A stretch of DNA of 64,000 nt from Candidatus Woesearchaeota archaeon (GCA_964385425.1 CAYLOQ010000001.1:1411-65410); one strand, 5' to 3'; numbered from the stretch's first letter, positions 3,292 through 56,393 are shown. The notes: generated by a model not told the origin, from the sequence alone. Made by a program: numbers and translations.

Positions 3292-4287
3292 TCACCTAGT
3301 TAATTTTTTTAAAGCTGAATATTCTTTGATCAATAAATCAATGGTTGGCCTTAGATTCCCTTTTGTTTGATACTCTTGTAAGGATTCATAATATTGTCTT
3401 TGATTTCTTAGATCAATATTTACTGGAGGAAAGTCATTTTTAAGTAAGATATTATTCAGCAACAACCTCCCAACCCTACCATTCCCATCAGCGAAGGGGT
3501 GTATATTTTCAAATTGGTTATGAACAACAGATGCTAATACGAGTGCAGGGTATCTTGATCTATTTTTATTATACCATCTGATAAGTTCATTAAGTAAAGA
3601 ATTTATTCTTGATTGAGGAGCTCCAAAATGAATTATATTCCCATAGCCATCTCTAACAACAACTTCTTGTCCTTTAATTCTGAATTTGCCTGCAAAATCT
3701 TTTGAATTTTTAAAAACAATTTTATGTAAATCTAAAATAAATTTTATTGATATATGTTCCCCTGTTTTTCTTATAAATTTAATAGCATCATTCACACCAT
3801 AAGTTTCTGCTATATCTTGCTTTGATTTTTTTGGCCATTTTCCCTTCTCCAAGATATCTTTTACTTCTTTTTTTGTTATTTCACTACCTTCTATTGCATT
3901 AGTATTATACGAAAAAAGCTCTGAAAAAGTTCTCCATTGTTCTTCCGATAAATGGATTATTCTTAATTTCTGACTCTTTTCTAGATTTTCAATCAGTTTT
4001 ATTTCTTTTTTTGATAACGGTGTTTTAAGAGGATCTTTAATTATTTTATATTGTTCAATTTCCTCGAGAATTATTTTTTCTGCTTTATCTAGCCTTCCTT
4101 TTAACTGTTCTTCATTTATATTTTTTCCTAGAAACTTCCTTATTTTATTTACTTTTCCATCTTCTCTAAAAGAATGTGCTAAATAATATTTTATTCTGTT
4201 TCCTTCCTTTCTCTTCTCGACATACATAACAACAAATAGGTGACTACATATATAAATCTTTCTATTGTATTGTCTACATACGCCCAC
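3292..4287 (-). CDS. Fic/Doc family protein (AMPylation-type Fic domain)
   Basis: Canonical Fic motif HPFADGNGRVGRLL. The real start is probably the internal Met near 4227 (MYVEKRK...), because the longest ORF overlaps the upstream repeat motif. Confidence 0.8.
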   Translation of the reverse strand: MGVCRQYNRKIYICSHLFVVMYVEKRKEGNRIKYYLAHSFREDGKVNKIRKFLGKNINEEQLKGRLDKAEKIILEEIEQYKIIKDPLKTPLSKKEIKLIENLEKSQKLRIIHLSEEQWRTFSELFSYNTNAIEGSEITKKEVKDILEKGKWPKKSKQDIAETYGVNDAIKFIRKTGEHISIKFILDLHKIVFKNSKDFAGKFRIKGQEVVVRDGYGNIIHFGAPQSRINSLLNELIRWYNKNRSRYPALVLASVVHNQFENIHPFADGNGRVGRLLLNNILLKNDFPPVNIDLRNQRQYYESLQEYQTKGNLRPTIDLLIKEYSALKKLTR

Positions 4288-4293
4288 GCCGAG
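4280..4293. repeat. Copy 3 of the motif ACGCCCACGCCGAG
   Basis: Upstream of the Fic gene. A TATA-like TTTATATAT box lies about 25 nt further toward the gene. Confidence 0.65.
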
Positions 4294-4333
4294 TGCTATG
4301 GGGTGTAGGACTTCGACTCCCTGTTAGGGAATC

Positions 4334-4347
4334 ACGCCCACGCCGAT
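4334..4347. repeat. Copy 4 of the motif (ACGCCCACGCCGAT variant)
   Basis: 40 nt from copy 3, between the Fic and pentapeptide genes. Confidence 0.6.
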
Positions 4348-4431
4348 AGTAGTTTGGGAGTAGTATAAGAGTGTTATAGTTGGAGAATTTTAATCCCTCC
4401 ATAGCTCAATGGTTCTGTATTAACCACTTAA

Positions 4432-5106
4432 CTATTCTTCACGAAAATCAAATTCTGGTGTAATGGCCTTTAATATAATCTTTTTTTCCCTATTCGTTAC
4501 AATAGTTTTTCTATACCCCCTATCTTCAAACTCACCCTCTCCAAATATTGCCGCTTGTATCCAGGGATTATCCCATAAACCTACCGATCCTCTAAGATCG
4601 GCCCCGCCAAACCTTACTCCATAGAGATTCGCATCTGTAAAATCTGCTTCTCTTAGATCAGCTCCATAGAGCTGAGCTTCACGGAGTTCTGTCTTTCTAA
4701 GACTTACTCCCCTTAGATCAGCCATGTGAAGAGTTACTCCTTCAAGATTTGCTAAACTAAGATCAGCCCCTTGAAGCCTTGCTCCTTTAAGATTAGCCTG
4801 ATAAAGCCTTGCTCCTTTAAGATCCGCTCCTTCAAGATTTGCATTTACCCCCCTTAAATAAGGCATATGAAGATCTCTTGCAATTAAACCTTGAAAATTA
4901 GAGTCTTCTATTGTTATTGGGTTCTCTCTGAAATAATCATTAATTAAATACTCTCTTAATACTCTAAAGCTCGGATGTCCACTTAAATTTAAATTCCTTC
5001 CCACTCTTCTAGAGAAATCTCTTCTTCCACTCAATATCCGCATAATTTCATCTGCAGTTATTGGTCTTAATTCAACACTGGTTTCTGTTTGTTCCATAAT
5101 TCCCAC
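4432..5106 (-). CDS. Pentapeptide repeat protein
   Basis: Tandem A(D/N)LxG pentapeptides, e.g. ADLKGARLYQANLKGARLQGADLSLANLEG... Confidence 0.8.
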   Translation of the reverse strand: MGIMEQTETSVELRPITADEIMRILSGRRDFSRRVGRNLNLSGHPSFRVLREYLINDYFRENPITIEDSNFQGLIARDLHMPYLRGVNANLEGADLKGARLYQANLKGARLQGADLSLANLEGVTLHMADLRGVSLRKTELREAQLYGADLREADFTDANLYGVRFGGADLRGSVGLWDNPWIQAAIFGEGEFEDRGYRKTIVTNREKKIILKAITPEFDFREE

Positions 5107-5141
5107 ACAAATTCTTCCTTTTTAAACTTTATGATATAAAT

Positions 5142-5155
5142 ACGCCCACGCCGAG
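5142..5155. repeat. Copy 5 of the motif ACGCCCACGCCGAG
   Basis: Immediately adjacent to the TATTTATATCA TATA-like box upstream of the pentapeptide-repeat gene. Confidence 0.65.
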
Positions 5156-5249
5156 AATAATACACTTTTGCATATCTAAGAGGTGTACTTTTGTGCCTCT
5201 TTAAATGACTAAATGAATAATGTTTAAATAATTTTGTATAAAAATAAAT

Positions 5250-8006
5250 TTATCTATATGTTACTTTTCTTATTTTATAATGTTTCTTAATCTTTTCCCT
5301 TTTAATTTCATTTTTTAGAATCATCCTGTTTAATTTTTGCTGCATTTTTGATGATTTCTTATCTTCATAAAATCTTTTATTAGAATAATCCTGCCCAAAC
5401 CTTATTTCTCCACGGATATTAAGAGATTTGAAAAGGACAATTATCATTAAAACAATAAACCCTATTAACAAAATTAATTTAGTGAAACTCCCAAATAATA
5501 TTGATGAATTTTCTTGAGTATTAATGTTATTTGATAGGATTTCTATAAGGAAAGAAGAGCCATAATATATTGAAATGATTAATGCAATTATTGAAACCAA
5601 AGAAATTATGATTATGAAAACTGTTTTTATGATTCCTCCAAAATTTGACTTATGATAATTGTATGGTTCTCTCTTCCTTTTCATCACTGAAATTATTATA
5701 AAAGTAGCTATTGCCAATAAAGATATGATTCCAATAAATAAAATAGGAATTTTTCCTTTAGGACCAAATGGAAAATATTCTCCTATATCAGGAATTCCTA
5801 TAATTCCTCCTGTTATTGATGGTGTATCTCCTTCATTATCTATTACTCTACCCCCACCAGAACTACTAGCACCACTTATGGTAAAGGTGTCAAAGAATTT
5901 ATCAGTTCTACTCCCTAAATTATAATATCCTGCTTCACATTGGAAAATATATGATTGAGTTGCTATAAATGTAGAAGGAACAAGAATTGCTTTATTTACC
6001 TTAAGAAGTGTCCTGTTAATCATCTGATTAAAATTAAATGAGTTATAATTATTAACTCCATCATTTAAATAACAAGTAAAATCAACTTCTTTTTCAACAA
6101 CCTGAGAGTCCTCTACTTGTGCAGATATTGAGCAAGTCATTTCGCTTCCTGAACTTGCTTGGGCAGGGCAATCAACCGAAAGATGGAAAGTCCCTGTTTT
6201 GGATTCTACTCCTTCAAGAGCAGAAGCTTGTCTTTGTTGGACTTGTAAATTTAAATCACTTGAATATCTACATGAATCTGAATTATTTACTATTATTGTG
6301 AAAGTATTATATGGTTCTACATCTGCAAATCCAATTAAAGTCATTCTATTGGTTTCTTCAAAGAAAGAAACATCTACTTCAGAAGTTCCTGCGTGTTTAA
6401 AATAAGGTATTGTAATTATATCATTTATTGTGCTTGAACTTCCTGCATCAGTTTCAATTCTTTTTTCTATACATCCTGCTATAACATCTCTATCTGTATT
6501 TTCAAAACAATATCTTGCTATAAATTTTGTTTCGTCTATTCCAAAATAATCATAAGTTATATTTACCTCCAATTCATTACAAGCACTAATTGATGAATCA
6601 AATGCACTTGTAGATATATTCACAACATCAATTATTTTAATATAGGGTGTTCCAACTTCATGCCCATAATAATTAAATTCATCTGATTCTAACTCTAAAT
6701 CTTGATCAAAATCTTCTAAATGTAAATGAAAATTAATATCAAAATCATTCCCTCCTACCACATGTGTAGGTAATAAAAACTCCTCTGAACATCTTTCAAC
6801 TACGCCCTCATCAATTTGTGGTTTTACAGAAGTCCTCATGATCACACTTTCTCCTTGTAATGTTTCCCCTGTGTCTAAACTTATTGGGAAAAAATGTTGT
6901 TCTAAGGTATCATCATCAAAACTTACTTCATTCACAAAAATAAACTTTTCTTCTGTGAAAGTATTATTTAATAATATACATAATGATGCAGGTTTTCCAC
7001 CAGTTAAAAATCCTTGACCATTTGTAGTTTTATTTCCTTCTACAGAATTATTGAAAGTACCCCAAGAAATATCTTCTTGGTTTATTCTTGTTGGTCCATC
7101 TGTTATTTGAATTTTTCCACCGAATTCATCTTTTAAATAAACAGCAGGGTACATCCCTTGACTTGCAGTAAAATCATCATGGAATCCTGTAGCGTTAGCC
7201 CATTTTTTATTTATCATAAAATCATTTAAATCATCAATTAAAAATCCCCTAGTTCCCTCCCCTGAAGAACCCTCTGCTGAGTTAGAACATTTATTGTCAT
7301 TCCCTGTTGGACAAAAACAATTAATATCTGTTAGATATTGAACCCCTGCTTTAAAATGGGCATCATCTATTTCAAAATCTACATCTAAATCTCCATTATG
7401 ATTTGATATTTCTTCTATTCCTGAAACAATAGTATTCCCACCAATTGTTTCTATATCGATTCTACAAGAAGCACCAGCAGTTCCAATTTCTGTTCCGTTT
7501 TTTACTTTTGCAGAAATTGCTAAAGTTGTTCCAATGAAGTTTTGAGTGCTTATTACAATCTCTTCTATTAATAAATCACTTCCTGTTGCAGCATTTATTG
7601 TTGCATTACTTTGTCCTGTTAAACCTCCTCCACCAGATAGTGTTGCATTAAGAACATTTCCATAAACAGATATATAAGAAGAATTAATTACGAAAGATTC
7701 AAAGAATTCATTATTTGGAGATGTAGTTGAACTTGGAGTTGTGCCTGTTGAAGTATCTACCACATGACCTGTCGCATTTGTCCAATTCACAGTATATGCT
7801 TGATTTTTCTCATTTCCTGTAGTTATTTCCATTTCTAAAGTCGCAGTTGAACCTTCAACATAGACTTCAGAATCTAAAACTGCCGTTGAAGCAGAAACAA
7901 AATTTATTAAGAATATAAATGAAAACAAAGATATTCCTAAAAGTAGGATCACAAATTTAGTTTTCATTTTTACCCCCCTCCCAATAATGTAATTTTGCTC
8001 TACCAA
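5250..8006 (-). CDS. Large secreted/surface protein of about 900 aa with an N-terminal signal peptide, three C-terminal TM helices and a basic cytoplasmic tail
   Basis: Probable start at the MKTKFVILLLGISLF... Met near 7967. The protein is Thr/Ser/Asn-rich with many N-x-S/T sequons. The C-terminus has hydrophobic segments followed by a K/R-rich tail, the same topology as the giant protein at 42624-53513. Confidence 0.6.
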   Translation of the reverse strand: MVEQNYIIGRGVKMKTKFVILLLGISLFSFIFLINFVSASTAVLDSEVYVEGSTATLEMEITTGNEKNQAYTVNWTNATGHVVDTSTGTTPSSTTSPNNEFFESFVINSSYISVYGNVLNATLSGGGGLTGQSNATINAATGSDLLIEEIVISTQNFIGTTLAISAKVKNGTEIGTAGASCRIDIETIGGNTIVSGIEEISNHNGDLDVDFEIDDAHFKAGVQYLTDINCFCPTGNDNKCSNSAEGSSGEGTRGFLIDDLNDFMINKKWANATGFHDDFTASQGMYPAVYLKDEFGGKIQITDGPTRINQEDISWGTFNNSVEGNKTTNGQGFLTGGKPASLCILLNNTFTEEKFIFVNEVSFDDDTLEQHFFPISLDTGETLQGESVIMRTSVKPQIDEGVVERCSEEFLLPTHVVGGNDFDINFHLHLEDFDQDLELESDEFNYYGHEVGTPYIKIIDVVNISTSAFDSSISACNELEVNITYDYFGIDETKFIARYCFENTDRDVIAGCIEKRIETDAGSSSTINDIITIPYFKHAGTSEVDVSFFEETNRMTLIGFADVEPYNTFTIIVNNSDSCRYSSDLNLQVQQRQASALEGVESKTGTFHLSVDCPAQASSGSEMTCSISAQVEDSQVVEKEVDFTCYLNDGVNNYNSFNFNQMINRTLLKVNKAILVPSTFIATQSYIFQCEAGYYNLGSRTDKFFDTFTISGASSSGGGRVIDNEGDTPSITGGIIGIPDIGEYFPFGPKGKIPILFIGIISLLAIATFIIISVMKRKREPYNYHKSNFGGIIKTVFIIIISLVSIIALIISIYYGSSFLIEILSNNINTQENSSILFGSFTKLILLIGFIVLMIIVLFKSLNIRGEIRFGQDYSNKRFYEDKKSSKMQQKLNRMILKNEIKREKIKKHYKIRKVTYR

Positions 8007-8163
8007 CAGGCCTAATTCTAATTAATTTTGCCCCCTTTAATTCTGCAAGAACGACGGCAACAGTGTTCCTAGAAATTTTTAAACCTCTTGCAATATCAAT
8101 TATTGTAAGTCCGTCTGTATTTTTTCTTAGAAGACTCTTAACTAATTCACCTTTTGTTTTCAT
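7957..8163 (-). CDS. Small winged-helix (MarR/ArsR-like) DNA-binding regulator
   Basis: 68 aa; LTIIDIARGLKISRNTVAVVLAELKGAKLIRIRPVG is HTH-like. It overlaps the start of the downstream surface-protein gene, so the two are probably co-transcribed. Confidence 0.5.
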   Translation of the reverse strand: MKTKGELVKSLLRKNTDGLTIIDIARGLKISRNTVAVVLAELKGAKLIRIRPVGRAKLHYWEGGKNEN

Positions 8164-8166
8164 TGT

Positions 8167-8266
8167 GCGTTAACGCTTAGTTTTATAAGTTATCTTTAAA
8201 ACTTTGTTTTATAAGTCATTTTTAAAGTTTAATGATATAAGTTATCTTTATTAATTATCTTTAATG
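8167..8266. promoter_or_regulatory. Palindrome GCGTTAACGC plus three to four tandem 25-26-bp iterons (TTTTATAAGTTATCTTTAAA) upstream of the wHTH regulator gene
   Basis: Direct repeats at 8181-8202, 8207-8227 and 8233-8253, with a partial fourth at 8254-8266. A 10-bp perfect palindrome lies at 8167-8176. Confidence 0.5.
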
Positions 8267-8390
8267 TTTATTATTGGTGCACAATAGTTTATAAATGTTT
8301 TTAATCGGTTTATGATATCAAAAAGATTTCAATAAAGCCCAGAAAGAGCGTTGGGATAATTTTAAAAAGACTTAACCCAGCTTATTTTTT

Positions 8391-8906
8391 ATGGATAATC
8401 GTAATGGAGAAGTTAGTCCTCTTGAAATAATTAGTGGGCAAGGAAGTATGGAAACCCCCGAATCATTTAGAGATAAGGCGAGGGGGTGGGTTGTAGATAC
8501 ATCCATAGCAGTTCTATGGAGTAATCTTGTTTTTGCACCAGGTGATTATGTTTTAGGTGGTTTGTGGGGGGATGAATTTGTTAAACAAAGAGTAGGAATG
8601 AGTTTGTTTAATTTGGCGTTTGGTGGGGTATTTGGAAAATTTAGAAATTATTGGACAAAAAATGTAATGAAGGCCACACCAAATAGTTCAAGATTTTACA
8701 AGGCAGTTAGTGATACCACAGCAGGTGCTATTTTTTATGGTCCTATTTATGTTGGACTTATTAAATCCCATGGGGCTTCATGGGAAGAAACATTTGCAGC
8801 ATTAGGGGGAGGACTTCTAACAGCCGCAATCACAGGTAGGCCCTATGGTTTGTGCCAAGATAAATGGAGAAAATTATTTGGAGTTAGGCCAGCTCTAGAA
8901 GAATAG
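8391..8906 (+). CDS. Hypothetical protein, paralog of 21771-22325
   Basis: Shares aligned blocks (K.R.GM..F, ASWEE/ASLEE...GGL, PYG...WRKLF/PF.EFWRTKVF) with the ORF at 21771-22325. Confidence 0.5.
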   Translation: MDNRNGEVSPLEIISGQGSMETPESFRDKARGWVVDTSIAVLWSNLVFAPGDYVLGGLWGDEFVKQRVGMSLFNLAFGGVFGKFRNYWTKNVMKATPNSSRFYKAVSDTTAGAIFYGPIYVGLIKSHGASWEETFAALGGGLLTAAITGRPYGLCQDKWRKLFGVRPALEE

Positions 8907-9063
8907 TTATAAATAAAACTCCCTCTACTCTCCCAGAAAGGGCGTTGAGAAGGTTTATTCTATGTGTTTATATGGATCTCGTTTCATATTGTGTACAATT
9001 TACAGATCTTTTTATAGAACCTGTATGTTTATTGTACACCCCACTAAAATGCAAAAATGTAGT

Positions 9064-9077
9064 ACGCCCACGCCGAG
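9064..9077. repeat. Copy 6 of the motif ACGCCCACGCCGAG with a hairpin-bearing extension
   Basis: 9064-9104 is near-identical to 3215-3262 (GAGGGTAGGA[CT]AAAAGTGTCCC). It lies between convergent genes, so it is not obviously a promoter. Confidence 0.65.
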
Positions 9078-9150
9078 GGTAGGATAAAAGTGTCCCAGTT
9101 GGGGGGTTAATATAAATCTAAACTCACCTTTAATAGAAGCTCAATAGTAA

Positions 9151-9459
9151 TTATTTCTGAACCGATAATAAATTCTTAACTGCTCCAACTAAAGAACCCT
9201 GTTGAAAATTTTTTGCTAAACTATCTATAACCGCAAGTAATCCAGGAGTATAAATCGCAATTTGTGCAACATTTGATAATTCAATTTCTTGACCTCTTAA
9301 TACCCCTGGTGCTAAAAAGCTACCTAAACAAATTGCTCCCTGAACAGCATAATTTCGGATTATTTCTCCATTACTTCTATTTTGAGAATCGTATAGCTCG
9401 TCATTGCTTCTAGCACTATACCATTCTTTTTGATCATGCAAAAAATTTTCTAATGCCAT
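9151..9459 (-). CDS. Hypothetical protein
   Basis: 102-aa ORF with a TATA-like box upstream. I recognise no motif. Confidence 0.4.
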   Translation of the reverse strand: MALENFLHDQKEWYSARSNDELYDSQNRSNGEIIRNYAVQGAICLGSFLAPGVLRGQEIELSNVAQIAIYTPGLLAVIDSLAKNFQQGSLVGAVKNLLSVQK

Positions 9460-9523
9460 GGAAATAAATGATAATAAGTGATTTATAAACTTTTCTATTT
9501 TGTCTTAATTCTTGAGTAACAAA

Positions 9524-9537
9524 GCGCCCACGCCGGG
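9524..9537. repeat. Copy 7 of the motif (GCGCCCACGCCGGG, the variant matching the tRNA in 13 of 13 core nt)
   Basis: Lies between two minus-strand genes, about 45 nt upstream of a TATA-like box for the ORF at 9151-9459. Confidence 0.6.
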
Positions 9538-9576
9538 GATAGAACTTTTTGTTAGATTTGGTGGGAGTTAAATTGT

Positions 9577-9996
9577 TTATTTACTTCTTTCAGAAACATT
9601 ACAATCAACATCAACATATCTTACTTCTACTTTAAATCCCAATTCTCTCAATTTATGTATTGTATTCTTTTGTTGATTATCCAGATGGGAAGAATTTGAT
9701 TTTACTTCCACAAAAGAAATTTCCTTTGTGTCTTGATCGATACAAACTAAATCAGGAAAACCAAGAATATTATCCTTTATTATTTTGATAACTTCTTTAA
9801 TTCTCTTTGTATCAATTTCCTCCCAAATCATCATATTTTGGATTCTTCCAATCATGGTTGTATTTATTGGGCTTATAACTTTATCATTAGTAAAATCAAC
9901 CCTCACAACATTTTGATTTTCTTCTTTCTTAAGTTTTGAAACAATATAATCTTCTGCAATTCTTCCTAAACTTGTTGTTGATATATCTTCATTCAT
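9577..9996 (-). CDS. Hjc-like PD-(D/E)xK nuclease (Holliday-junction-resolvase / restriction-endonuclease fold)
   Basis: N-terminal G..AE..V motif, then PDLVCIDQD...VEVKS, which matches the PD-x(n)-(D/E)xK catalytic core of the Hjc family. It has a longer insert than canonical Hjc. Confidence 0.5.
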   Translation of the reverse strand: MNEDISTTSLGRIAEDYIVSKLKKEENQNVVRVDFTNDKVISPINTTMIGRIQNMMIWEEIDTKRIKEVIKIIKDNILGFPDLVCIDQDTKEISFVEVKSNSSHLDNQQKNTIHKLRELGFKVEVRYVDVDCNVSERSK

Positions 9997-10044
9997 AGAA
10001 TATGGTGTTGAATTTGCCTATTTATACCTTGCTAAATGTTATGT

Positions 10045-10575
10045 TCAAGAAATAAATCTAAAACACTCATTTAAGCATTCTTTTTGAAAGCTATAGATTT
10101 TATTGTAATGTTTGATTAGAAAATAATCATTGGTGTATCTATTAAGAGGACTGTATTCTCCTTTTGGATATCTTGAAGAATTTACATGAGATGATAAAAT
10201 TTGTTGTAAGAGAAAATTTGGAGTAGTAATTTTCCCAACCCTTAAATTAGATTTACCAGAATCTATTTCAGATAATAGTGATTTGATTACTTCTATGATA
10301 GCTAAAAATATTTTTTCATTATCTATAGGAGTATTCTCTAAAATTTTAGTTTCTTCTTTCAAATCGTCATTCACCATATTTTTGTAAATATCTAGAGTTT
10401 TATGGCCATGCTTGAAGATTCCAGTAATACCTTTAGTTGTCTTTTCCACACTTTGTTGTAATAAGAAAATAGATTGAGGATATTTTCCATTTTCATAAAG
10501 TATCTTGGAAGACTCCAAATCTTCTAAGGCCATTTTTATAAAATTTTCATTTTCTTCTTTCATTTTTAACCACAT
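10045..10575 (-). CDS. HEPN domain protein
   Basis: The N-terminal helix pair ALEDLESSKILYENGKYPQSIFLLQQSVEKTTKGI matches the HEPN N-terminal pattern. It overlaps the start of the upstream secreted-nuclease gene by 10 nt. Confidence 0.55.
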   Translation of the reverse strand: MWLKMKEENENFIKMALEDLESSKILYENGKYPQSIFLLQQSVEKTTKGITGIFKHGHKTLDIYKNMVNDDLKEETKILENTPIDNEKIFLAIIEVIKSLLSEIDSGKSNLRVGKITTPNFLLQQILSSHVNSSRYPKGEYSPLNRYTNDYFLIKHYNKIYSFQKECLNECFRFIS

Positions 10576-11552
10576 AAACTCTCACAGGGAACTCCATCAT
10601 CATCACCATCTAATTCATTAACATCATAACTACAAGCATCAAATACATCCATTACTTCTGAACAAGAATTGAAATCTCCACAATTGTAAACATTTCCTCC
10701 ACAGCCAACCGTATTTACTATAACATCATCAGTCTTTGCAGATGAAGTATCCCATATCCCTATTTCTTTACCTTTTGCAATACTCTCTGCATCTTCTATT
10801 ATTGAACACTTAGAAGTATCTGGAGAATAAGGATAAGCTCTCCCATAACCTTGTAGAACAATTCTTAGATTAATAAAACAATTAGCTAAATCTGTGCAAT
10901 CTTTTTTAGTATAGATATATCTTAATAATCTTCCATACCTGTCTGTTTCTGAAATATCTTTTTCAAGATAAACTTCTTTATTAAAAATAAGATTTGTAAG
11001 ATAATCTTTTGCTTCTTGATAACCATCTTCATAAGTCTCGGGGGTATCAATGCAAATTAATCTTACTCTTTCACCTGAACTTAATTCTATAGTATCCCCA
11101 TCAATAACTCTTGTTACTTTATACCAATTTTTAGTTTCTTCAAACGTTGGAGTTTCAATAATTTCATCAGAAACAATTTCTTCTTCTGGCTCTTGGATAC
11201 ATTCTCCATTTTCACAGCCATAAAGACAATGATAATTATTAAACCACGAAGTGCCGCAATCTGAATATTGATATTTTTTTTGGATATAATTCCCATTACA
11301 TCCATATTTATCTAAATATTCTGCTTTACAATTTTCCTCTCCAATGTTAGAAATAATTTTCCCAGTTGGTATCGGGTTTTCTCTCTCTTCTTCAGTTTTC
11401 TCAGGTATAGTTTCTTCTTGAATATCCTCTTCAGACGCTTCTTCTTTAATAACATTAGAAGTGATTGTAGGTTCTTCATCTGGAAGAAAAATTCCTGCAA
11501 ATGCGAAAACAAGAACAATTCCAATAACCCATAATGCTGTTTTTGTTTTCAT
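10566..11552 (-). CDS. Secreted staphylococcal-nuclease-like (SNase/thermonuclease) protein with a C-terminal Excalibur Ca-binding domain
   Basis: Signal peptide and Cys-rich N-region. The SNase core is VIDGDTIEL...VRLICIDTPE..., and the Excalibur motif is CGDFNSCSEV...DGDDDGVPCESLC. Confidence 0.75.
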   Translation of the reverse strand: MKTKTALWVIGIVLVFAFAGIFLPDEEPTITSNVIKEEASEEDIQEETIPEKTEEERENPIPTGKIISNIGEENCKAEYLDKYGCNGNYIQKKYQYSDCGTSWFNNYHCLYGCENGECIQEPEEEIVSDEIIETPTFEETKNWYKVTRVIDGDTIELSSGERVRLICIDTPETYEDGYQEAKDYLTNLIFNKEVYLEKDISETDRYGRLLRYIYTKKDCTDLANCFINLRIVLQGYGRAYPYSPDTSKCSIIEDAESIAKGKEIGIWDTSSAKTDDVIVNTVGCGGNVYNCGDFNSCSEVMDVFDACSYDVNELDGDDDGVPCESLCG

Positions 11553-11556
11553 TTAA

Positions 11557-12312
11557 TCAGAGTCCACTACTACCTCTTATATCACATTTAGTTATATTTT
11601 TTTCAATTTTACAATAAATGTTTGGTTCGTAGTCAATTGGTTCTGGGAGGATTGTATCACAACCACCACTACAATAAACTAAAATCTGTAGATTATATTC
11701 TGTATTAAATCCAAGTCCAGAAATGATATAATCTTTTGATTCCCCAATTCCCACAGAATTATTTTCTTTGTAATATAAAAGAAACCATGCTTCAGCTTCC
11801 CTTATAATAATGGAATTGGTGCTGGATAAATCTAAAGTTAGCTGTTTGGTTTCCTTAAACAAAGAAGGAATCTCTCCTATCCATATTCCACCCCTCTCTA
11901 AACCAAGAATACGATAGTAAACTAATACATTATAGGCGAGGTTATCTCTCGAATTACTAACAGATATATTTAATGTTTTTTTAATGGGATCAGAGACTGG
12001 TTCAGATACAACAATCAAAGGATTCTCTTCATTGGTTAATTTAAAAACAACCCAACCACTTAAAAGCCCAGAAACTAGCATTCCAATTATTGTTAATACT
12101 GTCAACCTTAATTGAAATTTATGAGTTTTAAAATTAAGATATTGTCGCTGGAGTCTATCATCATAATTGGGAGCTAGACCATTAGGATAATTTCTCTCAT
12201 CTTTCCTTGCTCTTCTATGTCTCCACCTTTCCGCTTCATCAAGATATTTGTCAAAAGCTTTGTAATCTCTTTTTTCAAACCAGTTTTTTATTCTATTCCA
12301 TTCTTTTCCCAT
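11557..12312 (-). CDS. Membrane protein with a single TM and an extracytoplasmic domain
   Basis: Basic N-terminus, then the TM segment LTVLTIIGMLVSGLLSGWVVF. No recognisable motif. Confidence 0.45.
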   Translation of the reverse strand: MGKEWNRIKNWFEKRDYKAFDKYLDEAERWRHRRARKDERNYPNGLAPNYDDRLQRQYLNFKTHKFQLRLTVLTIIGMLVSGLLSGWVVFKLTNEENPLIVVSEPVSDPIKKTLNISVSNSRDNLAYNVLVYYRILGLERGGIWIGEIPSLFKETKQLTLDLSSTNSIIIREAEAWFLLYYKENNSVGIGESKDYIISGLGFNTEYNLQILVYCSGGCDTILPEPIDYEPNIYCKIEKNITKCDIRGSSGL

Positions 12313-12424
12313 AAACTTAACACAAATTGTGTAATTTTATATCTTTGCTTTGCTTTGAAATCTCCTTCAGAATTGCATAAAATACTTATAATATGCAATA
12401 TTTAAAAGAGACAATATCTTAAAT

Positions 12425-17458: not shown

Positions 17459-17788
17459 TTGATTCTTTATATGAATTACATGCCAAAGGTAAGAATAAAA
17501 CTAAACAGTACAGACATAGAAATGATCAATAATATCTGTGATTCTATCAGAGATGTGGCTAAAAGAGCAGGAATCGCTATAAGCGGCCCTGTTCCCCTCC
17601 CGACTAAAAGGCTAAAGGTAACAACAAGAAAGTCTCCTTGTGGAGATGGGACAGCTACGTTTGATAATTATGAGATGAGAATCCACAAAAGACTTATTGA
17701 CCTGCCTGCAAACGAAAAAGTCCTTCACCACATAATGAGGATGCAGATCCCCAAGAATGTTAATATTAAGATTGAGATGAAAGATTAA
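17459..17788 (+). CDS. rps10: Ribosomal protein S10 (uS10)
   Basis: KVRIKL...GPVPLPTKRLKVTTRKSP.GDG...FDNYEMRIHKRLIDL matches the uS10 core. The true start is probably the internal Met (MPKVRIKL) near 17480. Confidence 0.85.
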   Translation: MILYMNYMPKVRIKLNSTDIEMINNICDSIRDVAKRAGIAISGPVPLPTKRLKVTTRKSPCGDGTATFDNYEMRIHKRLIDLPANEKVLHHIMRMQIPKNVNIKIEMKD

Positions 17789-18419
17789 GAAATTTTTCTA
17801 GTTCATATATGTTTCTCAGTTGATAATCAGCTTCATCCGACGTAGCATTCACAATAGCTGTTTTTATTCCAAGAGATTTTGCAGGAATGATGTCCACTTT
17901 TTCTCTATCACCCACGAACATCATAGAATCAAAAGAAACGTTGTGGTTGGACGCAACATATTCGAAAGCAGACCCATCATTTCTGAGATACGGAGAATCT
18001 CTGTAAAGAAAGGGTGAAAACAAAGAAGATTCAATTCCCAAAGCAGATAATTTTTTACTTGCTGTATTTTTTGAACTTGAAGTTATTAAGAAAAGTTTGT
18101 ATCTTTGAGAAAGCCTATCAAACATTCCAACTAATTTTTCATCTCTCTCTAAAGATGGAGAAACATCTGCCTCTTCGAGAGAGGTTTGAACTATCTCCAC
18201 CCCTTTGGATGAACCAATCCCCATTAATGTGAGAGAACCACTGGCGCTTTGCGTTCTCTCATAGTGATCCCTAAAAATTTCTCTTATCTCTTCATAAGGT
18301 CTATCTAAAAAGGTACTGGCTTGTCCACAAATATGGTCTTGAATTGCTTCGTTTGTTTTTGCACCATCATAAAGGGTATTATCCAAATCAAATCCCAGAG
18401 AAACAATTTCTAAACTCAT
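17766..18419 (-). CDS. HAD-superfamily hydrolase (phosphatase)
   Basis: Motif I DLDNTLYDG near the N-terminus and later HAD motifs (FLITSS..., GD.E.D). It is the last gene of a four-gene minus-strand operon. Confidence 0.7.
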   Translation of the reverse strand: MSLEIVSLGFDLDNTLYDGAKTNEAIQDHICGQASTFLDRPYEEIREIFRDHYERTQSASGSLTLMGIGSSKGVEIVQTSLEEADVSPSLERDEKLVGMFDRLSQRYKLFLITSSSKNTASKKLSALGIESSLFSPFLYRDSPYLRNDGSAFEYVASNHNVSFDSMMFVGDREKVDIIPAKSLGIKTAIVNATSDEADYQLRNIYELEKFLNLSSQS

Positions 18420-19051
18420 AAAAAAGCCCCCCTTATTATATCACTACAATGTAAAAAAACTTCCTCCAAGGTAAGATCAGATGTATCAAGAGTCTCCATT
18501 TGTAAATTAGGAAAAAGACTTTGAAGAGAGCCGTAATATTTTGATAATAAATCAATCCTATCTGCCTCTTCATTTCTACTGGTTGTCTCCATTGTTACAT
18601 CACTTCTACGATGGACTCTTGATGAGCCAACATCACCTCTTACGGTTAAAACTAATGTCAAATCAGGAAAAGGTATTCTTGAATTAAGTAACCTAATGGT
18701 TTCGGGATTAACCCCCCCAAGTAAGCCCTGATAAACAAAAGTATCAAACAAACCCCTGTCTGATAAAAAATATAAATCTTGTTCATTAATTCTTGGAAAA
18801 ACACTTTCACAATAAGTCATCAACCGATCCAGACTAAAAATGTATGCTTCTGTAAGGGGGTCTTTATCTCCTCTTAACAGATATGATTTGCTCAGATCTC
18901 TTAAAGGTCCGGGCTCTATTATTCTTTTAACCTTAAATCCAGAATCAACTAACCAATTTGTCAACAGACCTTGCAATTGTGATTTTCCAGACCCTGAAGG
19001 ACCAACAATCTGAATTATTTTAGCCATTTGAAGTCCCCCTGGGAGCTCCAC
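18416..19051 (-). CDS. Thymidylate-kinase-like P-loop dNMP kinase
   Basis: P-loop GPSGSGKS, and a DR(Y/F) motif LSDRGLFDTFVYQG like Tmk DRY..S..AYQ. The start is probably MAKIIQIVG near 19027. Confidence 0.6.
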   Translation of the reverse strand: MELPGGLQMAKIIQIVGPSGSGKSQLQGLLTNWLVDSGFKVKRIIEPGPLRDLSKSYLLRGDKDPLTEAYIFSLDRLMTYCESVFPRINEQDLYFLSDRGLFDTFVYQGLLGGVNPETIRLLNSRIPFPDLTLVLTVRGDVGSSRVHRRSDVTMETTSRNEEADRIDLLSKYYGSLQSLFPNLQMETLDTSDLTLEEVFLHCSDIIRGAFL

Positions 19052-19676
19052 AACCTAATACTCCAAAATCTCTATATAATCTATAACAATTTTCTCTAGA
19101 ATAAAATTTTTTGTCTCTTTTATCAGACGGAACATCGTCAACAACAGAAACCTCGTCCCAAGAATTTGGATGTGCATAAAAAGGATATCTTTCATCAGCA
19201 CCACTAATAAATAAAGCATTAAATTCTAAACCCTCTTCTCTTGCCATAAAAACCCTGTGCGCTCCATCATTAATTACCGGAATTTGGATTTCTGTGGGGT
19301 CTTCATACCTTATTTCCCCTTCTTGAGGGATGTATTGAATAGTTCGGCGAGTAACTTCAATTATGGGGGGTGTTAAAGTCCATATCTCTCCAAGATCGTT
19401 TTTTATTTCTAAAGCACCCTCTAACATTAAAGAATCTAAACCAAATGATTTAATAAGAAGTCGTCTCAGCAGCCTCTGTCTTTCAAGACCTTCTTTTAAA
19501 ACATAGAATGTTGTCGGATTAACTTCTTGATAACCAGATCTTCTTAAACCAACCTCTGCATTTTGGTAAACAAAAATTTGCTCTCCGGATTCTCCTTTTT
19601 GTGATAAAGGAACTGAACGAACCATACTTGCCAATTCACTAAAAGGTATCTCTCTTAGCACCTCTATTTTTTCCAT
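19020..19676 (-). CDS. ParB/Srx-like (ParB N-terminal domain) protein
   Basis: INDGAHRVFMAREEG matches the ParB/sulfiredoxin (I/V)xDGxHRxxAA signature. Confidence 0.45.
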   Translation of the reverse strand: MEKIEVLREIPFSELASMVRSVPLSQKGESGEQIFVYQNAEVGLRRSGYQEVNPTTFYVLKEGLERQRLLRRLLIKSFGLDSLMLEGALEIKNDLGEIWTLTPPIIEVTRRTIQYIPQEGEIRYEDPTEIQIPVINDGAHRVFMAREEGLEFNALFISGADERYPFYAHPNSWDEVSVVDDVPSDKRDKKFYSRENCYRLYRDFGVLGCGAPRGTSNG

Positions 19677-19727
19677 CTAACATATTTGTTCTTAATTTTT
19701 TTAAAATATTGTATTCTCCAAGATATA

Positions 19728-21482
19728 TTATTCTTCACCACCTTCGGAATCAAACCAGCCATAGCCTCTTTTCCAAAGCTCTGCAGGATATTCAGATTCA
19801 TCGACCCTCAAAAATTCTCCTGTAATAGGCATTAAATCCCTGGCTTTTGCTACAAGTTCCCTAGCCATTCCAACATAAGAAAAGTTACCTTTAGAAATAT
19901 CCCCTCTTATTTTTCCCACATACCCTATTTGATTAGGTTGCCAAGAATAAAGAGACCTACAATTAGCTCCAAAAGGAACAAGTTTTTCCGCAACGTGAGG
20001 ACTTTGTTCTCTTGCACTTTCATAAAAAGTTGCTGCTTCTCCCATATCTGATCTATATTGTTCGTCAAATCCAAATACTTCAAAAATTTCAGGGGTTTCA
20101 AATCCAAGTCTCGTAGTTAAAAGTTGATTTGACCTAGGACCTCTTCTATGTCTAAAAATATCTCTATACCCATGATATGCCATAACTAACTCAACCATTA
20201 ATCCTCCATGAGATATGGAAGGGTGTAAAACATCAAACCCTCCCCTATCTTTATGTACTCGCTCAAGAACATCTCTTACATCTCTCTCGGAAATTTCTTC
20301 CATCAGATCTACAATAGATGCATCTAAATGAGGGAATAAAGAAAGCGCTGCATTAAACCTGTCAGTATACATTTCAATATCTCTCGGGGAAAGTAAATTA
20401 ACTACTCCTTCACTATGATTTCTAGGAACAACATGTCCAAATCTATCTTGAGCATATTCTCTAAACTCTCTATCGTTAGAAACTACCCAGTTATCCACCC
20501 TTACATGACTTTGATCTCCTAACAGTATGGGAGAAATCTTTTTTGCTTCCCCCCAAATTCTTTTCCCAACATCCTGATCCTCCAATCTTGGACTTGAAAT
20601 CAGCCCTGTAATAACTTCTTCCAATACTCTTGCGTCTATAGAGTATCCCATTGACGTCTTTGTTGAAGCTAACAAATAAACTCTTGATGAATCTAAAACA
20701 AACTTTCCTATATCTCTTCTTATAGATCTTTCTTCGAGACCTTTCAAAACTCTCAAACGTTCTTTTTCAAAATCTGTTGGAGTGGGAATAAACCCTTCTG
20801 TAAATTCCATCCGCTCTTCAAGTCTCGTTTTAACCTCGGTTTCAACATTTTCTGGTCTGCTCAAAAAACTTGTTACTAAACCGGTGTATCTATGATCAAA
20901 AACCCTATCTGCCAAAGCTTCTGTAACTTCGACATATCTTTGACTCATATAGGACATGTAATCCACAAAATCTTCTGCTCCTTCAAGACTCAAAACATCT
21001 GGATCTGCAAGAGATAATTCCAGAGTATTTCCAAAAGAGATATATCTCGTAGATTTAACTTGTGGTCTGTTGAGGGGATGACCTGTAATTTTCTTACCCG
21101 TTATATCTGAAATATTTTCGCAGTGACCAAATAAGGGTGTTTCTTCTTTAATTGAAGAATGACCATGTTTTAAGGGCCATTGTTTATTGAACATGGCTGT
21201 TTTAGTTGACATTTTCAAGGAACCATCAGGATTTCTAAAAATATCCATTAAACTAGGGATCATAGGTAGTATTGCCCTTGCTTGCTCTGTTTTATCTCTA
21301 TCAAGAAAAAGTAAAACTCTATCTTGGAAGGGCATATGCGTTTTAGAATAGGCTGACATCAAAGGGGAAAGTTCTTCTCCTGCAATTAGTGGTTGTGGAT
21401 AAATAAAACTTATATCCCCCCCCGGATTAGTAAATAAAAATTTCCTTAATGACTCCTCCTCTTCTGGAGAAAAATTTTCCAT
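19728..21482 (-). CDS. Large uncharacterised protein with ThyX-like sequence motifs (possible divergent or duplicated flavin-dependent thymidylate synthase-like enzyme)
   Basis: 584 aa. Contains FRHRRGPRS preceded by H-rich strands (LHPSISHGGLMVELVMAYHG), resembling the ThyX H...H...FRHR block. An SQRY motif lies earlier, but the spacing differs from the canonical RHRx7-8S. It heads an operon with ParB-like, Tmk-like and HAD genes. Confidence 0.35.
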   Translation of the reverse strand: MENFSPEEEESLRKFLFTNPGGDISFIYPQPLIAGEELSPLMSAYSKTHMPFQDRVLLFLDRDKTEQARAILPMIPSLMDIFRNPDGSLKMSTKTAMFNKQWPLKHGHSSIKEETPLFGHCENISDITGKKITGHPLNRPQVKSTRYISFGNTLELSLADPDVLSLEGAEDFVDYMSYMSQRYVEVTEALADRVFDHRYTGLVTSFLSRPENVETEVKTRLEERMEFTEGFIPTPTDFEKERLRVLKGLEERSIRRDIGKFVLDSSRVYLLASTKTSMGYSIDARVLEEVITGLISSPRLEDQDVGKRIWGEAKKISPILLGDQSHVRVDNWVVSNDREFREYAQDRFGHVVPRNHSEGVVNLLSPRDIEMYTDRFNAALSLFPHLDASIVDLMEEISERDVRDVLERVHKDRGGFDVLHPSISHGGLMVELVMAYHGYRDIFRHRRGPRSNQLLTTRLGFETPEIFEVFGFDEQYRSDMGEAATFYESAREQSPHVAEKLVPFGANCRSLYSWQPNQIGYVGKIRGDISKGNFSYVGMARELVAKARDLMPITGEFLRVDESEYPAELWKRGYGWFDSEGGEE

Positions 21483-21625
21483 TTGATTTAAAGAGAAAAT
21501 TTATATTTAAACAAATGTATTCCTTAGGGTACACTTCAAAAAAGCTCTGCATCCGGTTAAATTTAAATAATTCTCTTTTTCACCTAAAGGAAAGTTTGAT
21601 AAAGAAAACCTTGGTTGTCTTTATA

Positions 21626-21707
21626 GCCCGTATCGCATAGTGGTTATTGCACAAGACTGGAACTCTTGGCCCTTCGGGGCTCCCAGGTTCAATTCCTGGT
21701 GCGGGCG
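21626..21707 (+). tRNA. tRNA-Ser (anticodon GGA), type II with a long variable arm
   Basis: GCCCGUA acceptor, anticodon stem CAAGA/UCUUG with loop CUGGAAC, 14-nt variable arm, T-arm CCAGG-UUCAAUU-CCUGG, 3' UGCGGGC + G. Confidence 0.85.
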
Positions 21708-21770: not shown

Positions 21771-22325
21771 ATGGATTATGAAGAGAGAAGACCAGACCAT
21801 AATAATGATCATGACACTACTTCAGTTAGTGACAGCTCTAGAGAAAAAGAATCTTCATTACTGAAAAAAGTAAAACATGTTGGTGCGACCGTAAAAGATA
21901 TTGCTGCAAGCACAACCGCAGGATGGGTTGCTTACACACCAATTATGGCTCCGATTGAATATTTCTGGGCCGGTATGGATGGGGGAGAAGTGCTAAAAAC
22001 TAGAGCCATGGCTGGCTTCGGACACTTAATTGGTTTGCCCCTATATCAAAAATCAAGAGAATATTTTGGAAGAAAGTTTAATGTAACAGAGGATAGTAGC
22101 AAATTGAAAAAAAGAGCGCTTAATGCTCTTGCATTTGTACCTGTTCATCCCCCAACTTATGCTTTGTTCTTAGCCCTTTCAGGAGCCTCGTTAGAAGAAA
22201 TGAAATACGCACTTCCGGCAGGCCTAGCAGTAGTAATGGTAACATCCCCCATATTCACACCCTTCATGGAATTTTGGAGAACAAAAGTATTTAAGGAAAA
22301 ACCGACCCTTAAGAAAAAGTGTTAA
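21771..22325 (+). CDS. Hypothetical protein, paralog of 8391-8906
   Basis: See 8391-8906. It lies immediately downstream of tRNA-Ser. Confidence 0.45.
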   Translation: MDYEERRPDHNNDHDTTSVSDSSREKESSLLKKVKHVGATVKDIAASTTAGWVAYTPIMAPIEYFWAGMDGGEVLKTRAMAGFGHLIGLPLYQKSREYFGRKFNVTEDSSKLKKRALNALAFVPVHPPTYALFLALSGASLEEMKYALPAGLAVVMVTSPIFTPFMEFWRTKVFKEKPTLKKKC

Positions 22326-23179: not shown

Positions 23180-23509
23180 ATGGAAAAAGACATTGGAAAA
23201 ATAAAAAAAGGTGAATATCAGGGAGCAGTTACCGATGTTGTTATAGGAATCAGAGAATACAATGGAAGAGTTGGTGTTGATATAAGAGAATTCGTGACAA
23301 GTGAGAGATACACCGGACCCACAAAAAAGGGATTGAGAATTCCTGCAGAAAGTTTTCCAGAATTCAAAGAAATGATAAATTCTATAACAGATGAAGATTT
23401 AAAAGAAGGGGAGAAGCCAGAAGAACCTGAAAGTTCAGAAGAAACCCCTAAAGGACAAAAGACCCTTGGAACAGAAAAAGAAGAATCAAGTGAAATGCCT
23501 GATTATTAG
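23180..23509 (+). CDS. Small acidic hypothetical protein
   Basis: 109 aa with an E/K-rich C-terminus. Confidence 0.35.
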   Translation: MEKDIGKIKKGEYQGAVTDVVIGIREYNGRVGVDIREFVTSERYTGPTKKGLRIPAESFPEFKEMINSITDEDLKEGEKPEEPESSEETPKGQKTLGTEKEESSEMPDY

Positions 23510-37935: not shown

Positions 37936-38586
37936 TTAATTTAAGTTTTTTATTAAATCTAAGTTTAATTCATTAAGAGAATTTATAACTAAATCTGCCT
38001 CTTTAAGTTCTTCTTTTGTATGAAAATCCGTTAATAATGCTATTACTTTCATTCCAGCATTTTTTCCAGATTGAATTCCATTTACAGCATCTTCTATAGC
38101 AACACAATTTTTAGGATCTACTTCCAACTTTTCTGCTGTTTTTAGATATATTTCAGGGTCTGGTTTGTGTTTTTCTGTATCTTCTGCAGTAATAATTATA
38201 TCAAATTTGTTTTTTATACTCAATAATTCCAAAATCTTATCTGACCTCCACCTATGGCTTGAAGTAGCCAGTGCAAATTTTATTCCTTCACTTTTCAAAG
38301 CTTCTAAAAAGTTTATTATAACACTATTCTTCTTAATGTTTCTCTCATAAATCTCAAATTGTATTCTTCCCAATTTTTTAGAAAATTCATTTACATCGTG
38401 CTCTTTTATTCCATAATCTTCTTTTAACATTTTTAATTGATCTTTTAAGGATCTTCCCAAATATTTTTTAATCTCCCCATCACTAACATTAACTCCTTCT
38501 TCTCCAAGTAATTTATTCATAGCCTTCCAATTATATTTTGGAGAATCCACTAAAACACCATCCATATCAAAAATTACTGCTTCCAT
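37936..38586 (-). CDS. HAD hydrolase, beta-phosphoglucomutase-like subfamily
   Basis: Motif I IFDMDGVLVDS, later motifs ATSS and EDAVNGI..GKNAG. Confidence 0.8.
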   Translation of the reverse strand: MEAVIFDMDGVLVDSPKYNWKAMNKLLGEEGVNVSDGEIKKYLGRSLKDQLKMLKEDYGIKEHDVNEFSKKLGRIQFEIYERNIKKNSVIINFLEALKSEGIKFALATSSHRWRSDKILELLSIKNKFDIIITAEDTEKHKPDPEIYLKTAEKLEVDPKNCVAIEDAVNGIQSGKNAGMKVIALLTDFHTKEELKEADLVINSLNELNLDLIKNLN

Positions 38587-38587: not shown

Positions 38588-38977
38588 TTAATTTAAATCC
38601 CCTAACTGTTTAATTAAATCATCAGTATTTTCAAATTCAATTACTTTCTCAGCCATATCTCTTAGATAAGTATTTTTAACACCTTTCTTAATTGCTAATA
38701 TTAATTTTTTCTTTTTGGATAAAACATATCCAATTTCGATTAACATACCCTCGCTTCTTCTTTCAGATCTAACAATTGCCAAAAAAGCATCTGCTTTATC
38801 TATCTCTTCAAATGCATGATTCAACATTTCTTTTTTATTTTTTTTCTGGAATTCTTTTTCATCTTCTTGAAGAGTACAATAATACTCATGATCTTCTAAA
38901 GAAGTATAAATTTTTTCCATTTCCTCATAAAGTTTATTCATGTCTTCTCCGCTAACAGCCTGACCAATAAAAATTTT
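38588..38977 (-). CDS. Nucleoside 2-deoxyribosyltransferase-like protein (paralog-like of 36974-37384)
   Basis: MKIFIGQAVSGEDM...ADAFLAIV...EIGYVLSKKKKLILAI fits the NDT-like pattern. The start is taken at the internal Met just downstream of the gyrB stop. Confidence 0.45.
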   Translation of the reverse strand, partial: KIFIGQAVSGEDMNKLYEEMEKIYTSLEDHEYYCTLQEDEKEFQKKNKKEMLNHAFEEIDKADAFLAIVRSERRSEGMLIEIGYVLSKKKKLILAIKKGVKNTYLRDMAEKVIEFENTDDLIKQLGDLN

Positions 38978-38981
38978 CATT

Positions 38982-42366: not shown

Positions 42367-42627
42367 ATGAAAAAAACAGTAATTTTACTGTCAATTTTAA
42401 TGCTAACCTTAGCAAGTATTATATTTTTAACGGCAGAGCAGGACCCACCTTACACACATTCATGGACAAAAGCCATTTGTGATGAAAATAACCACTGTCA
42501 GGACCACATAATTTTCTGTAAAGGAGAAAAATTAGTCAGCACAACTCCAATAACAGGGGCTACAGTTCAACTCTCCAAGAATTGGGAAGATCCAAGAGAT
42601 GAAGAAATAAGAGAGAAATTTTGTTAA
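42367..42627 (+). CDS. Small secreted Cys-containing protein
   Basis: Signal peptide MKKTVILLSILMLTLASIIFL. 86 aa. Confidence 0.4.
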   Translation: MKKTVILLSILMLTLASIIFLTAEQDPPYTHSWTKAICDENNHCQDHIIFCKGEKLVSTTPITGATVQLSKNWEDPRDEEIREKFC

Positions 42628-56390: not shown

Positions 56391-56393
56391 TTT

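Follow-up and report, generated by a model that had tools for sequence, protein, structure and literature searches.

A putative thymidylate supply operon of DPANN archaea that pairs a double-domain ThyX-like protein with a ParB/sulfiredoxin-fold companion

Canonical flavin-dependent thymidylate synthase, ThyX, is a homotetramer with active sites at three-subunit interfaces, and in many prokaryotes its gene is adjacent to that of the thymidylate kinase Tmk. The operon described here resembles this pairing in some respects and departs from it in others. It lies within 64,000 nucleotides (nt) of sequence from Candidatus Woesearchaeota archaeon (GCA_964385425.1 CAYLOQ010000001.1:1411-65410; hereafter, the window), a low-GC DPANN archaeon (window GC 0.336), and comprises four co-directional genes on the minus strand at 17766-21482, as a sequence-only reading of the window had reported. 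Gene A (19728..21482; 584 amino acids, aa) encodes a tandem Thy1-Thy1 protein, a predicted flavin-dependent thymidylate synthase; gene B (19020..19676; 218 aa), a ParB/sulfiredoxin (Srx)-fold protein; gene C (18416..19051; 211 aa by a GTG start call), a Tmk-family P-loop deoxynucleoside monophosphate (dNMP) kinase; and gene D (17766..18419; 217 aa), a HAD-IA phosphatase. We propose, with a probability of roughly 0.62, that the operon is a lineage-specific module of Woesearchaeota/Pacearchaeota-type DPANN for the supply and homeostasis of thymidylate, from deoxyuridine monophosphate (dUMP) through deoxythymidine monophosphate (dTMP) to the diphosphate (dTDP). The folds, residue conservation, gene linkage and gene fusions behind this proposal are observed; every catalytic activity assigned below to the four proteins is predicted.

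The closest described system is ThyX of Thermotoga maritima (TM0449, PDB 1O26) together with dTMP kinase. The operon shares with it the ThyX fold, the dUMP to dTMP to dTDP logic, and the types of gene found nearby (ribonucleotide reductase, RNR; the dCTP deaminase Dcd; dCMP deaminase), and equivalents of H53, R78-H79-R80, S88, R90, Y91, R147, R165 and R174 are all present in A. The differences lie in A itself—a 584-aa chain of two Thy1 folds with complementary losses, neither half self-sufficient, and with an insertion in the N-terminal half—and in the profile scores, A falling below the thyX equivalog and C being a paralogue under the Tmk cutoff.

The unusual size of A, remarked upon in the sequence-only reading, is explained by the presence of the Thy1 alpha/beta fold twice, as structure prediction and Pfam profiles agree. 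An AlphaFold2 model built from an alignment of 26 homologues has a mean predicted local distance difference test score of 92.4, and the top 50 Foldseek matches in the PDB are all ThyX (probability 1.00; target-normalised template modelling score 0.44-0.60), each spanning only about 40% of the model. The Pfam Thy1 match to A (27.4 bits, just over the 24.8 cutoff) is limited to residues 97-318, within an N-terminal fold of about residues 1-325 (20508..21482, minus strand); the C-terminal fold comprises about residues 326-584 (19731..20507, minus strand), and of 17 C-terminal halves scanned in isolation three match Thy1 (best E 2.8e-09). Alignment of the two halves with hhalign gave no significant self-similarity (E 0.17), and the duplication is deduced from the independent Pfam matches of the halves together with the fold. 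Using as reference the T. maritima ThyX sequence (identical to PDB 1KQ4/1O26), both halves are collinear with ThyX over about 190 columns, the C-half over 185, in hhalign comparisons whose statistics are weak, the template being a single sequence. The N-half also contains a large helical insertion at about residues 150-270.

The residues expected of a ThyX active site are divided between the halves. The N-half holds HGHxSIKEE (H106, H108, S110, E113) and KSTRY at 143-147 (S144, R146, Y147), as well as R267, D283 and R285; in T. maritima numbering, H53 corresponds to H108, E58 to E113, S88 to S144, R90 to R146, Y91 to Y147, R147 to R267 and R165 to R285. It lacks the RHR motif, with G134-H135-P136 at the position of R78-H79-R80. 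The C-half holds YRDxFRHR (R440, D441, R444, H445, R446), Q453 and R526, so that R444-H445-R446 correspond to R78-H79-R80 and R526 is a candidate for R174, and it lacks equivalents of H53, Y91 and R147. The motif is thus complete only with both halves combined: the N-half reads GHP...KSTRY (no R78 or R80), and the C-half reads RHRRGPRSNQLLTTRL (no Y91; S88 replaced by T). Of two ThyX-reminiscent blocks proposed earlier for A, FRHR, at 443-446, is conserved; SQRY, at 180-183, is not equivalent to the ThyX motif, only Y183 being conserved in the family, and its true counterpart is KSTRY.

This partition extends well beyond the DPANN. Homologues of A of the full-length type number 66 (43-62% identity, about 590 aa each), all from DPANN archaea, the closest from Pacearchaeota and Woesearchaeota metagenome-assembled genomes. 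An exhaustive profile search of 1.84 billion representative sequences recovered 371 clusters at an E value of 1e-30 or below and 1473 at 1e-10 or below, the majority 470-600 aa long with two matched stretches. Among 130 distant tandem proteins from bacteria and archaea, the N-half retains the equivalents of H53 in 105, S88 and R90 in 122 each, Y91 in 121, R147 in 129 and R165 in 118, and the C-half those of R78 in 129, H79 in 122, R80 in 128 and R174 in 129, with the partitioned residues lost from the opposite half. This wider family, which includes members from Armatimonadota, Eisenbacteria, Myxococcota, Tectomicrobia and other archaea, is automatically annotated as FAD-dependent thymidylate synthase. 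A is a member by its double-domain architecture and residue division; it differs in that B, C and D are missing around the distant members in all three gene contexts read, where these stand by themselves, and in that the DPANN clade has substitutions of its own (P for R at the position of R80 in the N-half, K for Y at that of R147 in the C-half) as well as an insertion of its own.

On the evidence of profiles and model, A is a double-domain ThyX. Complementary degeneration after tandem fusion, with each residue kept in one half, argues that a composite active site is functional, and from the same pattern an obligate pseudo-heterodimer with half as many active sites would be expected. Sequence searches of the PDB with A and with a profile of its C-half returned nothing significant, and neither sequence nor Foldseek searches of the PDB found a solved structure of a tandem ThyX; our literature searches, which included fused ThyX and the ThyX of Chlamydia, found no biochemical or structural study of this form. 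The Chlamydia enzyme may itself belong to the long type.

The four genes also travel together, as the neighbourhoods of A in relatives attest. We compared 25 loci, one genome per GTDB species, of which one (L021) stops at a contig edge, leaving 24 informative; the divergent homologue P0067 sits on a contig of just 3 kb and its context is uninformative. (The source records of four entries clearly of DPANN type, loci L006 and L024 and proteins P0099 and P0027, carry the names uncultured Methanosarcinales archaeon, Candidatus Uhrbacteria or Patescibacteria group bacterium, probably because metagenome-assembled genomes were mis-binned or mislabelled.) In 18 of the 24, A-B-C(-D) form an unbroken run on one strand: ten loci with four separate genes, one cut by the contig end after C, six with A, B and a C-HAD fusion, and one in the order A-B-D-C. 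The remaining six comprise A-D-Tmk without B (L011), one locus with B upstream on the opposite strand, and four, from a divergent clade of A, with A alone. In the window itself, B and C overlap by ATGGCTAA, counting from an ATG start for C at 19027 that is preceded by GGGGGA and is likelier than the GTG call, and C and D overlap by ATGA; such overlaps of start and stop codons point to translational coupling. Between A and B lie 51 nt, so that an earlier description of all four genes as overlapping is right for B/C and C/D only.

An ordinary ThyX-Tmk pair, with B and D as fortuitous neighbours, is a rival account of the locus; it has behind it the common adjacency of ThyX and Tmk and the four loci in which A occurs alone, from which it follows that B, C and D are not needed in cis. 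Against it, the kinase has B and a phosphatase beside it in 18 of 24 loci, a recurrence that is far above chance and comes with gene fusions, among genomes that are not near-identical strains (one per GTDB species, A identities of 43-62%). Moreover, B accompanies a kinase and a phosphatase also in lineages that lack A, kinase and phosphatase became fused on at least two independent occasions, and the genes overlap at their starts and stops. We consider fortuitous association extremely unlikely.

The loci of distant B homologues (33-38% identity) extend this point. At L034, an HTH-NUDIX gene lies upstream, followed by B, an ADK-family kinase and an NT5C deoxynucleotidase; at L037 and L038, dihydrofolate reductase is followed by B and then by a 451-aa protein in which a D-type HAD domain (E 2.5e-36) is fused N-terminally to Tmk. 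Because these loci repeat the combination with other parts, the conserved core, as gene content indicates it, is B with a (d)NMP kinase and a dNMP phosphatase, rebuilt from non-orthologous components. The kinase-phosphatase fusions arose in opposite domain orders, and their repeated independent origin implies that the two activities act together.

Genes bordering the operon in relatives are predominantly those of the thymidine triphosphate (dTTP) pathway. NrdR and RNR are neighbours at L002 and L026, and at L016 the last operon gene is overlapped by a gene (10588-12420, plus strand) for a 610-aa fusion of two-domain dCTP deaminase (DCD_N and DCD_C) with NUDIX. Stand-alone homologous NUDIX proteins of about 206 aa adjoin the operon at L004 (9665-10285, minus), L013, L014 (10652-11263, minus) and L005 (6295-6927, plus), the L004 protein having no precomputed Pfam match; together with the Dcd-NUDIX fusion they look like a route from dCTP through dUTP to dUMP. 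A kinase-like domain is fused to dCMP deaminase at L007 and L023, and the B-less locus L011 is flanked by a pyrophosphatase and an aspartate/ornithine carbamoyltransferase. Finally, a CARF/Csa3-like regulator (HFX_2341_N 59.7 bits, Csa3_N 42.2 bits) lies between A and B in two species (L020, 2632-3336, plus; L029, 2259-2984, minus), which hints that the operon may be controllable by a nucleotide-derived ligand. No glycosyl-, amino-acyl- or other transferases were found in any neighbourhood examined.

For B, the earlier suggestion of a ParB/Srx-like protein is borne out: it belongs to Pfam PF24392 (Parb-CE, 58.8 bits), and its model is a single domain of 218 aa with the ParB/Srx core fold. Its nearest structural neighbours, sulfiredoxin, SbnI and the archaeal free serine kinase SerK, are ATP/ADP-dependent phosphotransferases. 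Invariant E, D, H, R, K and aromatic residues in B are compatible with a nucleotide site. Canonical ParB was rejected as an identity, since the core fold alone is held in common: Pfam searches with B gave no PF02195, helix-turn-helix or dimerisation-domain match, and no parA occurs in any neighbourhood examined. Sulfiredoxin was rejected as well, because no Cys is conserved across the family, distant members included; the catalytic Cys that Srx carries in an (F/S)GGCHR motif is missing from B, which reads DGAHR (Ala139), and INDGAHRVFMAR spans its residues 135-146. The B profile aligned with human sulfiredoxin only insignificantly (hhalign E 0.07) and apparently out of register, and we therefore draw no motif equivalence with Srx. 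A PDB sequence search with B returned nothing significant, and a viral fold library gave weak, generic ParB/Srx matches, none of them significant. From sulfiredoxin, SerK and SbnI, B differs in having no detectable sequence similarity to them, in its own N- and C-terminal elements, and in its context, which is deoxynucleotide metabolism rather than cysteine/serine or redox chemistry.

On these grounds B is predicted to be a nucleoside triphosphate (NTP)-binding phosphotransferase or switch. A more specific proposal, which we make tentatively and think less likely than not, is that B founds a novel class of phosphotransferases, built on the ParB/Srx fold and acting on deoxynucleosides or deoxynucleotides. 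A dUTPase-like role supplying dUMP is also possible and would be less needed where Dcd-NUDIX or dCMP deaminase adjoins the operon. Hydrolysis of CTP and of other NTPs is within the reach of ParB folds (PMC12704722; PMC5512222), and nuclease activity has been reported for ParB domains (PMC5512222). Neither thymidylate nor ThyX is mentioned in a large survey from 2025 of the ParB-CTPase fold, seeded with PF02195 (PMC12704722); our literature searches (ParB-CE; ThyX with ParB or DPANN; ParB-like proteins together with thymidylate kinase or nucleotidase) turned up no account of such a module, and PF24392 proteins are annotated as hypothetical wherever the source gives a name.

C matches Thymidylate_kin at 61 bits (cutoff 27), in keeping with the Tmk-like kinase proposed from sequence, with a P-loop GPSGSGKS; its second motif, given earlier as DR(F/Y)...YQG, reads DRG...YQG. 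D, called a HAD phosphatase at the outset, is confirmed as one by an intact DxDxT motif (FDLDNTL, residues 10-16) and by matches to HAD_2 (45.6 bits) and Hydrolase (39 bits). Its nearest families are CTE7 and pyrimidine 5'-nucleotidase, with NCBIfam scores under both cutoffs (CTE7 53.1 against 169.75; Pyr-5-nucltdase 43.1 against 142.9), and in other lineages it is replaced by HAD-IIIA/PNK3P-like or NT5C phosphatases. The HAD domain of the C-HAD fusions is of type HAD-IIIA, a family other than that of D; it passes the PNK3P cutoff (24.6 and 32.3 against 22) and has weak matches to DNA 3'-phosphatase models. One natural C-HAD fusion, at L002, is a protein of 385 aa.

These fusions raise the possibility that C and D act on nucleic-acid ends. 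In that case C and D would resemble T4 polynucleotide kinase/3'-phosphatase, B would be a ParB-type nuclease or NTPase, and scavenged host DNA fragments or 3'-dNMPs would be converted to 5'-dNMPs that feed A. DPANN archaea rely on hosts for nucleotides and NT5C-type enzymes hydrolyse both 3'- and 5'-dNMPs, which would suit such a salvage role, as would the reported nuclease activity of ParB domains (PMC5512222) and the order of the fusions, a P-loop kinase followed by HAD-IIIA matching PNK3P, as in T4 Pnk and mammalian PNKP. The window's own genes fit less well: they are separate, C plainly belongs to the Tmk family, whose members act on a 5'-phosphate and not a 5'-OH, and the phosphatase here and at most loci is HAD-IA of the pyrimidine 5'-nucleotidase/CTE7 type. 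B, for its part, lacks a DNA-binding domain and finds its nearest structural relatives among small-molecule phosphotransferases, the genomic context is de novo dTTP synthesis, and evidence of polynucleotide action is absent. We regard nucleic-acid-end salvage as unlikely. Another parallel is the mammalian cycle of deoxynucleoside kinase and 5'(3')-deoxynucleotidase (NT5C, NT5M), which likewise sets a kinase against a HAD deoxynucleotidase, as proposed here for balancing the dTMP/dUMP pool, and a true NT5C-family enzyme is present at one distant B locus. The operon differs from the mammalian cycles in that its partners are co-transcribed or fused and have a ParB-fold companion, and in that its kinase is a dNMP kinase of the Tmk family, not a nucleoside kinase, a function that might however come from B.

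Taken as a supply and homeostasis module, the operon may work as follows. The dUMP would come from Dcd-NUDIX or dCMP deaminase acting on dCTP or dCMP, the genes for which lie beside the operon in some relatives. A, to judge from its catalytic residues, fold and context, would methylate dUMP to dTMP using FAD, NAD(P)H and methylene-folate, a dimer of A mimicking the homotetramer of canonical ThyX but with a smaller number of complete active sites, probably two. C, by its family membership, would phosphorylate dTMP, and possibly dUMP, to the diphosphate. D would dephosphorylate pyrimidine dNMPs in opposition to the kinase, giving a regulated substrate cycle that sets the dTMP/dUMP pool. In the weakest and most speculative step, B would bind NTP, either to convert dU or dT to dUMP or dTMP, closing the cycle as an analogue of thymidine kinase, or to serve as a nucleotide-sensing switch that controls the C/D pair.

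Several observations weigh against this proposal. A scores 15.6 against the NCBIfam thyX equivalog TIGR02170 (cutoff 87.9), and the contiguous ThyX motif RHRxxSxxxxSxRY is absent from either half. C scores 62.8 bits against the dTMP-kinase equivalog TIGR00041, under its 83.25 cutoff, and a canonical Tmk that passes this cutoff lies no more than 7 kb from the operon at L019 (86.1) and L004 (split, 88.6 and 39.1); C might thus have a substrate other than dTMP. A kinase and a phosphatase acting on one phosphate would be futile unless regulated. To these may be added the divergent-clade loci in which A lacks B, C and D nearby. The nucleotide specificity of ParB folds, moreover, is not predictable from sequence or models (PMC12704722), which makes any role for B a guess. 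The separate canonical Tmk genes at L019 and L004, together with that in the kinase slot of L011 (128.1 bits), imply that C belongs to a paralogous subfamily. C-type genes exceed 185 bits against the C profile and second kinase copies score 30-36 bits; by this sequence criterion C is a Tmk paralogue of a distinct subfamily, whose presence tracks B.

Some of the same observations could be read as signs of a modified-nucleotide cassette, the interpretation suggested in the sequence-only reading. A would then make a non-canonical 5-substituted pyrimidine dNMP, C would be its dedicated kinase, B, on its ParB-CTPase fold, and D would clear the canonical nucleotide in the manner of T4 gp42/gp1/gp56, and the DNA would carry a modified base. 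The sub-cutoff scores of A and C, the coexistence of C with canonical Tmk at L019 and L004, the constant presence of a dedicated phosphatase, and the ability of ParB folds to hydrolyse CTP and other NTPs (PMC12704722; PMC5512222) are all compatible with such a cassette. There is also a superficial likeness to the pyrimidine hypermodification or replacement systems of phages (T4 gp42-gp1-gp56; 5-hmdU), which combine a C5 enzyme, a dNMP kinase, an NTP-hydrolysing protein and a phosphatase. However, the ThyX residues that contact dUMP and FAD are all kept in A and across the tandem family, most of which stands alone and is annotated as thymidylate synthase, and the B-less locus L011 has a canonical Tmk beside an A and a D of the same kind. 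The operon, unlike the phage cassettes, is cellular, chromosomal and vertically conserved, and its neighbours are ordinary dTTP-pathway genes without downstream transferases. Viral relatives are likewise lacking: A and B have none in 2.9 million viral contigs (IMG/VR), and A, B and D match nothing in PHROGs or PADLOC, where the matches of C are confined to a generic PHROG for thymidylate kinase and a weak one to PDC-M51B, respectively; the viral fold library, as noted, yielded nothing significant for B.

Nor does composition point to transfer. The operon, once thought GC-richer than its surroundings, has a GC content of 0.361 against 0.337 +/- 0.019 in equal-sized windows, a difference that is not significant (z = 1.24; 12.6% of such windows reach this value), and its GC at third codon positions (GC3) falls inside the range of the other genes. 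Horizontal acquisition was rejected because both measures are ordinary. Housekeeping genes flank the operon—ribosomal protein S10, seryl-tRNA synthetase, aIF5B and aIF2-gamma, by open reading frame (ORF) inspection and Pfam—and residence in a phage or mobile element was not seen. We therefore judge the modified-nucleotide cassette very unlikely; nothing was found in support of an exotic DNA modification, and a hypermodification reading is disfavoured. What survives of the suspicion is that C is a paralogue coexisting with canonical Tmk in some genomes and that B is unexplained. The corresponding general claim, that the operon handles a non-canonical pyrimidine deoxynucleotide, with A producing a 5-substituted dUMP or dCMP, C specific for it, and B and D purging the competitor, seems to us highly improbable; if it were true, it would mean a modified genomic base across a whole clade of cellular DPANN archaea.

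The remainder of the window offers further context. No second thyA, thyX or tmk is present among the 39 ORFs scanned in its 64 kb. A putative archaeal TATA-like box, TTTAAATATAAA, recognized by eye, precedes the start codon of A by 18-29 nt (21500..21511, minus strand); upstream of the operon follow a tRNA-Ser (21626-21707) and, beyond it, a gene (21771-22325, plus) that is one of two AlaE-like (L-alanine exporter family) membrane-protein paralogues, the other being at 8391-8906 (plus). A protein with a PC4/p15-like single-stranded-DNA-binding transcription-coactivator domain (PF02229) is encoded in this archaeon at 23180-23509 (plus). A nucleoside 2-deoxyribosyltransferase-like gene (38588-39049, minus) is followed by a HAD_2 phosphatase (37936-38586; 136.9 bits), the two forming a second small nucleotide-salvage pair in the window. 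A minus-strand run of conflict- or nuclease-type genes occupies 3292-11552, with Fic (3292-4287), pentapeptide repeat (4432-5106), VRR-NUC (9577-9996), HEPN (10045-10575) and a 328-aa staphylococcal-nuclease homologue (10566-11552), the last of which could be relevant to DNA scavenging. Two large ORFs, a giant one of 3629 aa (42624-53513, minus) and its neighbour of 1055 aa (38982-42149, minus), stand out in what is roughly a 0.5-Mb-class DPANN genome; giant proteins are typical of surface or host-interaction proteins in DPANN and the candidate phyla radiation. A co-directional run at 55353-59131 (minus) of sulfotransferase-like, NUDIX, AAA_17 kinase-like, S-adenosylmethionine (SAM) methyltransferase and radical-SAM genes is possibly a small-molecule or nucleotide-sugar modification cluster, and a PhageMetallopep-domain gene lies at 61499-61975.

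The supply and homeostasis module proposed here, if correct, would be a variation on a known pathway and not a new principle. Within it, the tandem ThyX offers a clean example of complementary degeneration following duplication and fusion, repeated over hundreds of protein clusters. Gene order, the replacement of partners by non-orthologous ones, and independent fusions tie PF24392 to a dNMP kinase and a deoxynucleotidase, and this linkage gives a concrete, testable range of possible functions for one new branch within a fold of wide current interest. For the host-dependent DPANN archaea that carry it, the operon would define how dTTP is supplied and kept in balance, a likely vulnerable point in their metabolism.

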